Assembly: GCA_963663545.1 (NCBI GenBank)
Contig: OY760505.1
Location: 384,001-448,000, forward strand
Length of the DNA stretch: 64,000 nt
Direction: 5' to 3'
Origin: Candidatus Delongbacteria bacterium
GTDB lineage: Bacteria > CAIWAD01
In this document: positions 52,465-56,263 of the stretch, piece after piece
Position numbering within the stretch: position 1 is the first letter of the stretch
How the letters are laid out: each line of letters begins with the position of its first letter
Position numbers and translations under genes: made by a program
Notes under the pieces: model-generated
Seen by the model: only the letters and a program-made list of their open reading frames with translations
Databases searched by the model: none
What the model was told of the DNA's origin: nothing

Positions 52465-52650
52465 GCCTGGGCCGCCGATTCCGCATTCACATCCCAGCCC
52501 GGAAACACCAGCACTGCAGGATGACAATGCAGCGCGCGCGCGCCAGGATCCTGGCCCGTTCCACTCCCAACTTGATGCGACCGTTCTCCAGCGCAGAAAG
52601 CGTGGACTGCGGAATGCCGGTCAGAGTGGTCAGTTGGTTCTGACTCAGCT
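52465..52650 (-). pseudogene. XRE-family HTH remnant with frameshift
   Basis: LSQNQL..LTGIPQSTLSALENGR...ILARA joins LHCHPAVLVFPGWD if 2 nt are removed from the (GC)6 run at 52532-52543. Confidence 0.7.
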
Positions 52651-53029
52651 TTGAGCATAACAACAGTCTTTGCCGAGTGTGGGGTTTGTGCGCGGTCGTC
52701 GGCAATCCATCATCAGGATGTGACACGCGCATCACGCCCTCACCCGGTGTATCACGTGCCCAGTTCGTGATACATCTGCAAACCCTGCGCAGCAGAAGCT
52801 CTACAGAGATCCTTCCCGACAGCAATCGCATCACAAATGCCCGTCAGGGCACCAGTGAATACCGAAGGTGTGAACACATGAGCGTTGCCTTGTAGCCACC
52901 ATCGGGTACCCGCCCGCGGCGGTTGTCCAGCGGACAAGCGTCCTCGGGTCGGAGGGGAAAAAGCGCTTTCTTTTGCTACTTGTATGTTCACACCCGCCAA
53001 AAAGGCTGACAGCTGGTCTAACTAGATGT

Positions 53030-53213
53030 ATGCGGGGTTTTCTCTTCAAGGCCTTGAAGAGAAAATCGCGGTGAACGAGCGGCTTTTGCGAATGGGTAGA
53101 ACCCGAAGAAAAGATACCGCCGTTCACCGCTACCGCGCTCTACGTGAAGACCGGACACCATCGTGATCCGAAGATCGCATGTTGCAAGAATGGTCCAGTA
53201 GGCGCATCCGCAT
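53030..53213 (+). ncRNA. IS110 bridge RNA
   Basis: 5' hairpin plus two internal-loop arms whose loops match the target flanks and the donor junction; exact ends uncertain. Confidence 0.85.
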
Positions 53214-53254
53214 GGTAGGGAACTCTTATTGCTTCAAAAAGGGAGAACTTCATC

Positions 53255-54286
53255 ATGGACAAGCCTCCACACTGGATCGGAATTGACGTTTCGAAGCAGA
53301 CTTTTGATGCAGCTTGGTGTCACCCTGAGTATTGTGACACCAGGCTGCCACTGTCAGAGTATCCATGCTCTTCGTTTCCCAGATCAGAGGTTGGTGCAGC
53401 TCAGCTTCTGGAATGGCTCCAGGAGATTTGTTCCACGCAGGATTGGCTTCCCGCAGGCATTGTCATGGAGAGCACAGGGCGCTACAGCGTAGAGCTGAAG
53501 GACTGGCTGCTTGAGCTGGAGCCCTCTCTGCTTGTCGCTATTGAGGATCCCACCAGAACCTCGTATCACGCGAAAAGCCTTGGCGTACGTAACAAAACCG
53601 ACAAGATGGACGCTGCAGCACTCGCCCGCTACGGCTGCGAGCGGAAGCCAAGTCCATTCCATGAGTTGCCATCTGCTTACCAGGTTTTGCGTGAACGTGT
53701 ACGCTACAGAGCACATGTCATGAAGCTACGCAATGCGGCCAGGCAGCGACTGCAGGAGCTGACAGGTGATCCAGAGCTGTTCGAGGCCGACAAGGCCCTG
53801 GCTGAGCAGTTGGAGGCTGCGCTGAAGCAGGCGGACATGCTCATTCAGCAGTGTGTGAATGAGCATGAAGAGCTGTGCAATGCTACTGGGCTGATGCGCA
53901 CAATTCCTGGAGTTGGTCCTATGGTTGCCGCTGTCGTGCTGGGCGAGGTAGGGCCACTGGAGCGCTTTGCGCGTAGCCGCCAGCTATCGGCGTACTCCGG
54001 GCTATCTCCACGCCAGCGCCAATCCGGTACAAGCATCAAGAGTGGCGGTCACATCACCAGACGTGGATCTGCACTCCTCCGGCAGATGCTGTTCATGGCG
54101 AGTGTTACAGGCCAACCTAAGGGGTCTCCGCTGAAAGCCTTTAGTGATGGCCTGATCATCAGAGGCAAAGGCAAAATGCAGGCACGGTGTGCTGTCATGC
54201 GCAAATTGCTTGTGCTGATGCGGGCTGTCGTGGTTACTGGCAAGGTGTACGACCCGTATCACGTGCCCAAGCCTCCAGCAGAATAG
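53255..54286 (+). CDS. IS110 family recombinase (DEDD RuvC-like + Tnp)
   Basis: GIDVSK, MESTG, KTDKMDA, IPGVG, GLSP...QSGTS. Confidence 0.96.
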   Translation: MDKPPHWIGIDVSKQTFDAAWCHPEYCDTRLPLSEYPCSSFPRSEVGAAQLLEWLQEICSTQDWLPAGIVMESTGRYSVELKDWLLELEPSLLVAIEDPTRTSYHAKSLGVRNKTDKMDAAALARYGCERKPSPFHELPSAYQVLRERVRYRAHVMKLRNAARQRLQELTGDPELFEADKALAEQLEAALKQADMLIQQCVNEHEELCNATGLMRTIPGVGPMVAAVVLGEVGPLERFARSRQLSAYSGLSPRQRQSGTSIKSGGHITRRGSALLRQMLFMASVTGQPKGSPLKAFSDGLIIRGKGKMQARCAVMRKLLVLMRAVVVTGKVYDPYHVPKPPAE

Positions 54287-54598
54287 AGCTGGAGACAAAT
54301 TATCTTCAGACTAAGGCTTGCTTATGAGCACACCATCTTTTCTTTGGCGCTCCAAAGAAAAGTAGGCTCTTCGCATCGCAGCCGCGATGCCAGCTGTTCA
54401 CACAGCCCAAGCAAGCTCGCTGCAGGCGGAGATAGACCCCGCGTCAGCGGGAAAGGCCCGGCTGGCCAAGCCATGCTCCGATTGCGACTCCGAAATCAAT
54501 CCTGATAGCGAGGGCAGTTTCGGCAGCAAGCCGCAGCGCACAAACGGTTGCGCCAGACCGTCTCTTGCTACCTTGTGGGCGAAATACAAGGAGAATTC

Positions 54599-56263
54599 AT
54601 GAGCGAGAATAAGGTCATCTTCTCGATGGTCGGCGTCGGCAAGGTGCTGCAGGACAACCGGCAGATCCTGCGCGACATCTACCTCGGTTTCTACTACGGC
54701 GCCAAGATCGGCGTGCTGGGTCTGAACGGCTCAGGCAAGAGCACGCTGCTGCGCATCGTCGCGGGCGAGGACAAGGACTACCTGGGCGAGATTGTATCAC
54801 AGCAGGGGCTGACCTTCGGCTATCTGCCGCAGGAACCGCAGCTGGAAGCGGGCCGCACGGTGCGCGAGGTGGTCGAGGAGGGCGCGGGTCGCGCTGCCGC
54901 ACTGCTGAAGGAATACAACGCGATCAACGAGGCTTTCGCCGATCCCGAGGCGGACTACGACAAGTTGCTGGCGCGCCAGGGCGAGCTGCAGGAGCAGATC
55001 GATCACCTGGACGCCTGGGATCTGGACAGCAAGCTCGAGCAGGCGATGGACGCCCTGCGCTGCCCGGACGGTGATACACGGGTGGAGGTACTCTCCGGTG
55101 GTGAGAAGCGCCGCGTGGCCCTCTGCCGTCTGCTGCTCTCCAACCCCGACGTACTGCTGCTGGACGAGCCCACCAACCACCTGGACGCGGAAACCGTCGC
55201 CTGGCTGGAACAGTACCTGGCCCGCTTCCCCGGCACGGTGCTGGCCGTGACACACGACCGCTACTTCCTCGATAACGTCGCCGGCTGGATCCTGGAGCTG
55301 GACCGCGGCCACGGCATTCCCTTCGAGGGCAACTACTCAAGCTGGCTCGAGCAGAAGAGCCAGCGTCTGCTGCAGGAAGAAAAGACCGAGAGCAAGCGGC
55401 GTAAAACCCTGGAGCGCGAGCTGGAATGGGTGCGCATGGCGCCGCGCGCGCGTCACACGAAAAGCAAGGCGCGTCTGGCCGCCTACGAGCGCATGGTCAG
55501 CGAGGAGAGCGAAAAGCGCCGCGAGGATCTGGAAATCTACATCCCGCCGGGACCGCGCCTGGGCCAGGTGGTGATCGAGGCCAGCAAGCTGAGCAAGGCC
55601 TTTGGCGAGAAGCTGCTCTTCGACGGCCTGGATTTCGCTCTTCCCCCCGGCGGCATCGTCGGCGTGATTGGCGCCAACGGAGCGGGTAAAACGACGCTCT
55701 TCCGCATGCTGACGGACAAAGAGCAGCCCGACGGCGGCAGCATCAAGGTCGGTGATACAGTCAAGCTGGGCTACGTGGACCAGGATCGCCCGATGGACCC
55801 GGAAGCCAGCATCTGGCAGGTCATCAGCGACGGCCAGGATTTCATCGACCTGGGCGGACGCGAAGTCAACAGCCGCCAGTGGGTGTCACGCTTCAACTTC
55901 AGCGGTAGCGACCAGCAGAAGCCGGTGGGCAAGCTCTCCGGTGGTGAGCGCGGTCGCGTGCACCTGGCGCGTACCCTGCGCGAGGGCGCCAACCTGCTGC
56001 TGCTGGATGAGCCCACCAACGACCTGGACGTCAACACCCTGCGCGCGCTGGAAGAAGGTCTACTGAACTTCGCCGGCTGCGCGGTGGTCATCAGCCACGA
56101 CCGCTGGTTCCTGGACCGCATCGCCACACACATCCTGGCCTTCGAGGGCGACAGTCAGGTGGTCTGGTTCGAGGGCAACTACAGCGATTACGAGAGGAAC
56201 CGCAAAGAGCGTCTGGGCAACGAGGGTCCGCATCGTATAAAATACCGGCGGTTGACCCGATAG
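54599..56263 (+). CDS. ettA: Energy-dependent translational throttle ABC-F protein
   Basis: [52 protein letters not shown]. Confidence 0.96.

Follow-up and report, generated by a model that had tools for sequence, protein, structure and literature searches.

Bridge RNAs were described in 2024 and have been predicted in most of the catalogued insertion sequences (IS) of the IS110 family, and thousands of orthologues are predicted according to PMC11208160. Target hairpins and half-site effects are already under investigation, as reported in 10.64898/2026.03.19.712850, 10.64898/2026.08.31.748434, and PMC13626964. Here we compare these systems, in particular IS621 from Escherichia coli, with a locus in a 64,000-nucleotide stretch of DNA (hereafter, the window) from a Candidatus Delongbacteria bacterium (contig OY760505.1, positions 384,001 to 448,000). 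The genome, denoted G000 in the coordinates below, is a single contig of 3.72 Mb with a G+C content of 56.7%. Positions 52981–54338 of the window very probably constitute an intact insertion sequence of the IS110 group, similar in type to IS621, which would be guided by RNA to a hairpin within a repeat specific to this genome.

The element encodes a recombinase of 343 amino acids (53255–54286, + strand) composed of a DEDD RuvC-like domain and a Tnp domain. The corresponding Pfam families are PF01548 (DEDD_Tnp_IS110, E = 3.4e-14) and PF02371 (Transposase_20, E = 1.1e-20). Residues 3–334 were aligned with the IS621 recombinase (8wt6; E = 5.3e-32, 114.8 bits), and residues 1–334 were aligned with that of ISCro4 (9t56; E = 1.1e-31). 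In the structure-sequence alignment, D11, E72, D116, and D119 correspond to D11, E60, D102, and D105 of IS621, whose catalytic roles are those given in PMC11208158. The S257-G258 pair is superimposed on the ESG sequence of IS621, the serine of which is S241 when the two tag residues in the chain are counted. All of the 40 aligned homologues retain D11, E72, D116, S257, and G258, and the residue at the position of D119 is Asp in 26, Glu in 10, Ala in 3, and Met in 1. Both domain features of the IS110 group are therefore present in this protein, namely the DEDD N-terminal domain and the C-terminal Tnp domain with a serine-glycine pair.

In a search of 5.8 billion protein clusters, the nearest proteins were 80% and 76% identical to the recombinase, both from metagenome assemblies, and all others were at most 49% identical. 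A preliminary description of this DNA had proposed a new bridge-recombinase orthologue with its own target specificity, and judging from these identities, this is a fair reading. A protein search of 60 related genomes found distant IS110 members only (best E = 3e-17), and a single-protein scan of the genome_contigs collection gave no confirmed relative. There is a second, very distant IS110-family-like open reading frame (ORF) at G000 3550969–3551364 (− strand), which has 24% identity to the window recombinase (E = 1.3e-4). The bridge-RNA model described below has no match at this ORF.

The element is 1358 bp long and has a CT core dinucleotide on each side, one directly to its left (52979–52980) and one forming its final two bases (54337–54338). 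The non-coding left end (LE; 52981–53254, 274 bp) starts with TGTATGTT, and the right end (RE; 54287–54336, 50 bp) terminates in ACACCAT. Read directly, these two termini are not inverted repeats of each other. The genome carries three copies of the element that are 100% identical over the full 1360 bases used in the search. They are the window copy, copy B (G000 863050–864409, + strand), and copy C (G000 851133–852492, − strand). The preliminary description held that copies with different ends would refute its reading. We found the same ends in all three copies, with the CT core on both sides of each. The lack of terminal inverted repeats, the short repeated core, and the presence of multiple copies with identical ends are the features expected of the IS110 group.

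The contigs of four public sequencing runs were also examined. In two runs from one sample, the element was present as a separate contig of 1369 bases with a word depth of 18.6–20.2, compared with 5.7–10.6 for its flanks; these values are consistent with about three copies. One contig end of the element carries the flank of the type found at copies B and C. The element was also found, with two differences over 53273–54360 (1088 bases), in a run labelled as another organism, where it is followed by a dissimilar flank. One contig of run X4 departs from the element at 53168 with 26 dissimilar letters, which we take to be an assembly break at a GATC palindrome. A blastn search of E. coli genomes with the element gave no match, and the 8 other genomes of the same family that were compared contain neither the element nor its target repeat.

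The left end has a predicted minimum free energy of −86.3 kcal/mol (z = −6.9), and none of 200 shuffled sequences was equally stable. The structured core of the putative bridge RNA extends over 53030–53213 on the + strand. It includes a 5′ stem-loop of 14 bp with a GGCC loop (53036–53067), within which lies a perfect palindrome of 28 nt (53038–53065). The target-binding arm (53068–53130) consists of a basal stem of 14 bp (53068–53082 paired with 53117–53130, A53078 being bulged) and a top stem-loop (53094–53104) formed by GGGT (53094–53097) and ACCC (53101–53104). The donor-binding arm (53135–53205) is built from an outer stem (53135–53146 with 53196–53205), a basal stem (GACC at 53149–53152 with GGTC at 53192–53195), and a top stem-loop (53163–53178) whose inner stem pairs 53163–53168 with 53173–53178. 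The whole structure is enclosed by an outer helix, ATGCGG/CCGCAT (53030–53035 with 53208–53213). The hairpin, the two arms, and the closing helix had been listed in the preliminary description, and all of them were recovered at the same positions.

To examine the conservation of this fold, 80 metagenomic loci encoding relatives with 37–46% protein identity were fetched. At least 300 nt of upstream sequence was available for 73 of them, and 61 of these were unique. Three loci (L043, L078, and L109) that were judged to be close duplicates of L042, L066, and L104 were removed manually, and the remaining 58 relatives were aligned with the window to give 59 rows. RNAalifold predicted 31 consensus pairs, 27 of which show compensatory changes. 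When the structure named in the window was imposed on the alignment, 72.9% of 3232 cells were paired, compared with 62.9% in shuffled alignments, and none of 500 shuffles reached the observed value. Sliding the partners by 1–3 columns reduced the paired cells to 37.7–48.6%. Double changes were found in 49 of the 57 pairs.

The individual helices are retained to different degrees. The first 10 basal pairs of the target arm are kept in at least 55 of the 59 rows, with 2 to 29 double changes apiece. The basal stem of the target arm and the outer, basal, and top stems of the donor arm are kept in 77–87% of cells (87.2, 80.2, and 77.5% for helices 6, 7, and 8 of the donor arm). For the top stem of the target arm, the register derived from the window was one column off; in the RNAalifold register, a G-C pair is found in 58 of the 59 rows, followed by pairs kept in 53+5 and 46+10 rows. 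The preliminary description had both arms closed by the ATGCGG/CCGCAT helix, which holds for the fold of the window. However, only 53.5% of cells are paired in the relatives, and this helix was rejected as a family feature and is regarded as lineage-specific.

A covariance model was built without the window, solely from 55 of the relatives, L058, L077, and L107 having been set aside as divergent. This model, a check that the preliminary description had proposed, matched 53031–53212 (+ strand) end to end with 113.4 bits (E = 3.7e-28), and this is the sole match in the 64 kb. In the whole genome there are exactly three matches, one per copy. The RNA family is linked to an experimentally studied one by L127, a plasmid-borne element of Enterobacter cloacae encoding a transposase almost identical to those of ISCro4 (E = 5.2e-188) and IS621 (E = 1.5e-178). 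The same model aligned end to end with the left end of L127 (517–712) with 42.6 bits (E = 2.4e-11, filters off), and ACAGUAUC of L127 falls at the position of ACACCAUC of the window in the model alignment. Given its lower score, L127 is assigned by these alignments to a branch of this RNA family that is further removed from the window element. In its fold, its covariation, and its match to the model, the left end of the window element has the structure of an IS621-type bridge RNA. Because the only model match lies upstream of the ORF, and not in the right end, the element is, by its sequence layout, not a member of the IS1111 group.

The left ends of many relatives (L048, L054, L057, L059, L067, L073, L089, L096, L112, and others) contain a conserved T-rich direct repeat, TTTTCTTTTTG GTT CTTTTTCTTTTG, about 30–90 nt upstream of the bridge-RNA segment. 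It is followed by two TGTGGATA-type motifs, which presumably resemble DnaA boxes. The T-rich part is similar to the target of the window element, and the left end of the window element has no such repeat.

The loops of both arms are complementary to the sequences that an IS621-type bridge RNA is expected to read. The left target guide CUUUUGCGAAU occupies 53083–53093, and its first ten nucleotides, CTTTTGCGAA (53083–53092), are identical to the 10 nt that precede the core in copies B and C. At the window copy, the contiguous left match is limited to CTTTTGC, and the ungapped match is 9/11. This count is the one given in the preliminary description, and the contiguous 10/10 match at copies B and C provides better support for the guide. 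The right target guide GAAGAAAAG (53105–53113) reads the core with its 3′ AG. As had been proposed, its part AAGAAAAG (53106–53113) is the reverse complement of the core and the right flank, and G53105 adds a G-T pair. In the donor arm, the left donor guide ACACCAUC (53155–53162) covers 7 nt of the right end and the core C; that is, ACACCATC at these positions is identical to the last 7 nt of the right end followed by this C. The right donor guide (53179–53188, + strand) is discontiguous, consisting of AU (53179–53180) and GCAAG (53184–53188), and pairs with CT-TGTAT with one G-T pair. The pairing of TGCAAG (53183–53188) with CTTGTA, which had also been claimed together with the identity of the left donor guide to the right end, involves this single G-T pair. 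The A, T, and GCAAG columns of the right donor guide are conserved in the alignment of the relatives. By analogy with the handshake guides described in PMC11208158, AU at 53114–53115 is a candidate handshake guide of the target arm. It complements positions 6–7 of the donor (AT), and AGAT is conserved at this place in the alignment.

In a control for chance matches, random genomic 14-mers matched the 274-nt left end by at least 10 nt in 10 of 5000 draws (0.2%), and random 12-mers matched it by at least 8 nt in 97 of 5000 draws (1.9%).

The same relationships between loops and flanks were found in the relatives. In 34 of the 58, the 8-nt left donor guide recurs once, 1.0–1.1 kb downstream and just past the ORF, and is followed by T. 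CT|TGTA[TA], which is found at the head of the left end in the window element, was located 44–130 nt upstream of the RNA segment in 45 of the 58 relatives, 42 of them at 100–130 nt. The right target guide could be compared with its own right flank in 30 relatives having at least 7 nt of flank. It matched at 7/7 positions in 22 relatives, 6/7 in 4, 5/7 in 3, and 2/7 in 1. There are 19 distinct right guides among these 30 relatives, and when guides and flanks of different relatives were paired, a 7/7 match was obtained in only 1 of 812 cross pairs. For the left guide, a stretch of at least 7 nt in common with the left flank of the same element was found in 17 of 45 relatives, compared with 21 of 1976 cross pairs.

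Pairing of the left and right target guides with each other (CUUUU/AAAAG) was also considered as a family feature and was rejected. The longest helices between guides of the same relative had a mean length of 3.0 nt, compared with 2.78 nt in cross pairs, when only Watson-Crick pairs were counted, and 4.02 compared with 3.72 nt when G-U pairs were included. In the window element, this pairing simply reflects a direct repeat, CTTTT...CTTTT, in the target.

The insertion site of all three copies of the element is a repeat of about 165 nt, specifically the 5′ arm of its terminal hairpin. This repeat has at least 12 copies in the genome and contains four hairpins with compensatory changes, and the terminal hairpin is A/T-rich with 13–14 bp. 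In the window, the repeat occupies 52790–52978 and 54339–54370. The left target half, TTTTGCTA before the core (52969–52978), belongs to the 5′ arm of this hairpin, and the right target half TTTCTTTG follows the element together with the rest of the hairpin (TTTCTTTGG CGCT CCAAAGAAA; 54339–54360). Other copies of the repeat are found near 306, 875, 1297, 2633, 2642, 3255, 3303, 3322, 3400, and 3540 kb of G000. An Rfam scan of ten copies of the repeat gave nothing above noise; the repeat may represent a family of small RNAs or an element similar to REP/BIME. The copies of the repeat that flank the elements are 75–91% alike, and that at copy B has an insertion of about 100 nt. Identical elements in diverged repeats indicate separate, recent insertions, and the three identical copies in diverged sites suggest that the element is probably active. 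Copies B and C are 10.5 kb apart in inverted orientation, and an unoccupied copy of the repeat is located another 10.5 kb along, near 874937. The regular spacing of the clustered repeats and IS copies could permit inversion of the segment between them.

The distribution of occupied and empty sites constitutes a natural experiment on specificity, with 65 right-half, 5 left-half, and 5 two-half sites. The genome contains 65 instances of the 9-mer composed of the core and the right half, CTTTTCTTT. The element occupies only three of them, each with CTTTTGC on its left. Strings of the left half plus the core, at five further places lacking the right half, are all empty. Sites of the B/C type, with a perfect 10-nt left match and the right half, are occupied in two of two cases. 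Two-half sites of the window type are occupied in one of two, an identical empty site being located at G000 ~874937 (− strand). A two-half site with one more nucleotide, r306, is empty (0/1). The left arm of r306 is found a second time at r3539, likewise empty, where an additional T in the right half places the site outside the 65. Six copies of the repeat whose arm deviates from the guides are empty. An uninterrupted target of the B/C type was not found by an exact or near-exact search (20-mer, up to 3 mismatches), and the empty sites emerged only after the repeat family had been aligned. Only sites that match both guide halves are occupied, in agreement with the published two-guide model.

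On the basis of its homology to IS621, the element would be excised as a circle of 1358 bp, in which the right and left ends are joined across CT. The junction ACACCAT-CT-TGTAT, whose resemblance to the IS621 donor had been pointed out in the preliminary description, shares 12 of 14 positions with ACAGTAT-CT-TGTAT of L127. This joining would place the −35-like TTGCTT of the right end (54318–54323, 3/6 matches) 17 nt from the −10-like TATGTT of the left end (52983–52988, 4/6 matches). In the integrated element, no sigma-70-like site was found on the + strand. The right ends of 34 relatives have a −35-like box 13–14 nt from the core, at the same position as that of the window element. TTGAC is read in 25 of the 34 (TTGACT in 11, TGACTT in 8, TTGACA in 3, TGACAA in 2, and TTGACG in 1), and when the ends of the relatives are joined, a spacer of 17–18 nt separates the −35-like box from TATGTT or TATGAT in the left end. 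From such a junction promoter, an RNA of roughly 200 nt would be transcribed from the left end, consisting of the 5′ hairpin and two arms with an internal loop in each. The loop of the first arm would read the chromosomal target, where CUUUUGCGAA is predicted to pair with the bottom strand on the left side of the core. The loop of the second arm would read the joined ends of the element, ACACCAUC being assigned to the right end and AU..GCAAG to the left end. A tetramer of the DEDD/serine recombinase bound to this RNA may then exchange strands at the CT core, with the 5′ arm of the terminal hairpin of the ~165-nt repeat as the preferred target. In this scheme, circle formation, transcription, RNA binding, and catalysis are inferred from IS621, and the observed sequence features, copy number, conservation, covariation, and guide-flank concordance are its starting points.

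The protein, the RNA architecture, the complementarity of the guides with the flanks and the ends, and the copy number support the IS621-type bridge-recombinase reading, which was also that of the preliminary description. The following observations weigh against it. The circle junction or an emptied site was not found in the contigs of the four public runs. The junction −35 sequence TTGCTT is weak and under the threshold of the scan tool itself, whereas most relatives have a TTGAC-type box; judging from the sequence, the junction promoter of the window element is present by position but weak. The handshake dinucleotide of the donor arm, AA (53189–53190), is not complementary to positions 6–7 of the target. 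The RNA segments of the relatives were chosen by alignment to the window region, and thus the covariance model is independent of the window in its letters but not in the location searched. The Rfam 15 scan of the element gave nothing above noise, and Rfam holds no bridge-RNA family. The left target guide lacks the core-reading CU with which the 11-nt left loop ends in many relatives, ending in AU instead, and its 10-nt match requires an offset of 1 nt. In the register typical of the family, the guide fits the window flank at 9/11 positions but the B/C flank at 5/11 only; shifted by one, it fits the latter at 10/10.

This difference in register can be traced to the CTTTTGC anchor, whose distance to the core is 2 nt in the window site but 3 nt in copies B and C. 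Since the spacing differs between the two types of site, one type must have been used with a slip or a bulge. We tentatively suggest that the left guide reads the target without core pairing and in two registers, that at least one natural insertion occurred with a 1-nt bulge or slip, and that the positional information thus lost may come from the conserved hairpin of the target, as reported for ISPpu10. Although we regard this as possible more than as probable, it would be a natural case of indel-tolerant recognition of the left half, with a bearing on the prediction of off-target sites for bridge editors. That the occupied sites differ in register offers a modest clue to the tolerance of mismatches and bulges.

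The variable register, together with the location of all three insertions in the 5′ arm of a conserved hairpin, also speaks for another explanation, in which the target is set mainly by the protein recognizing the hairpin and the matches between loops and flanks are secondary or coincidental. There is a precedent in ISPpu10, an IS110 element reported to use a stem-loop of its target as an extra specificity determinant (10.64898/2026.03.19.712850). However, the covariation of guides and flanks over 19 distinct right guides is not accounted for by a fixed protein-DNA contact, the six other hairpin-bearing repeat copies with arms deviating from the guides are unoccupied, and matches as long as the 10-nt left and the 8-nt right ones arise by chance in only 0.2% and 1.9% of draws. 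We therefore consider protein-based targeting improbable. The missing circle and empty-site joint in the public-run contigs and the weak −35 sequence would fit a genuine IS110 member that is now inert, and since copies B and C are merely 10.5 kb apart, inverted, and inside related repeats, the three relics might have been spread by duplication or recombination of the flanking repeats and not by RNA-guided insertion. Such a history would hardly leave 100% identical copies within flanking repeats that are only 75–91% alike and differ by an insertion of ~100 nt, a pattern that fits separate recent insertions. In addition, the ORF is open with its catalytic residues intact, the occupied sites all match both guides while sites with one half only are empty, and a near-identical copy with a different flank is present in another run. 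An inert element of this kind is thus rather unlikely.

It might also be argued that the RNA-like fold is a feature of the DNA, such as recombinase binding sites or subterminal repeats, from which no transcript is made. Covariation in an alignment cannot separate RNA helices from DNA cruciforms, and the 28-nt palindrome is symmetric on both strands. Nevertheless, the structured model matches one strand only, and the conserved helices contain many G-U pairs (for example, UG:19 at columns 11/34 and UG:32 at columns 137/229), which would not be compensatory if the other strand were read. Moreover, the homologous region of IS621 is a sequenced RNA of 177 nt that was resolved in cryo-EM complexes, as reported in PMC11208160 and PMC11208158. 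A purely DNA-level role is therefore very improbable, and the bridge-RNA reading is retained.

Two observations concern the neighbourhood of the element. A small ORF on the opposite strand (52487–52834, − strand) is located just upstream of the repeat and contains a helix-turn-helix-like stretch, …LTGIPQSTLSALENGRIKLG…. At 54694–54750, within the gene of an ABC-F ATPase (54548–56263), the contigs of all four runs pile up with a word depth of 70–279, their sequence being dissimilar on either side of this stretch. This stretch probably corresponds to a conserved ATP-binding motif that is common to other organisms in the samples.

In this study, a natural bridge-recombinase orthologue was added to those already predicted. 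It is compact (1358 bp) and has a long right target guide and a T-rich target, and its host belongs to a sparsely sampled bacterial lineage. Nothing found here alters what is known of the family.

Among the known systems, the IS1111 group shares with the window element the recombinase family and the RNA-guided logic described in PMC11208160. However, its seekRNA or bridge RNA is located in the right end, whereas the RNA of the window element lies in the left end upstream of the gene, and the right end consists of only 50 bp and the core. ISPpu9 and ISPpu10 of Pseudomonas putida resemble the window element in being multi-copy IS110 elements confined to one repeated intergenic stem-loop sequence, a likeness drawn from their descriptions in PMC12288879 and 10.64898/2026.03.19.712850. 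L127, which is a near-identical copy of ISCro4 (9t56), shares the RNA family, as its left end is aligned end to end by the model of the relatives, and the ends CT|TGTAT and ...TAT|CT; its left guide ACCCGGCCU is identical to its own left flank plus the core. It differs from the window element in its lower model score, in its left donor half (ACAGTAT in place of ACACCAT), and in its target.

Compared with IS621 (structures 8wt6–8wt9), the recombinase of the window element is distant (114.8 bits); a tblastn comparison with the ISCro4-type relative gave ~30% identity. With 8–9 nt, the right target guide is longer than that of IS621 (4 nt), the left target guide matches 10 nt without a core-reading CU, the RNA is enclosed by an extra outer helix, and the target sequence and the host are different. 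Despite these differences, the two elements retain the same basic composition: a two-domain recombinase with the DEDD motif and the serine, a left-end RNA with a 5′ stem-loop, a target arm, and a donor arm, and a CT core. The left donor guide of both is 8 nt long, with A as the first base and the core C as the last, and the right donor guide of both is the discontiguous AU..GCAAG with one G-T pair, which for IS621 is described in PMC11208158. The right donor half TGTAT is also common to both; with the core included, the corresponding bases of IS621 are C8, T9, T10, G11, T12, A13, and T14 (PMC11208158). Both elements are inserted into a repeated extragenic hairpin element, and both have natural targets that deviate slightly from the guide, the common natural site of IS621 being one base from its loop as reported in PMC11208160.

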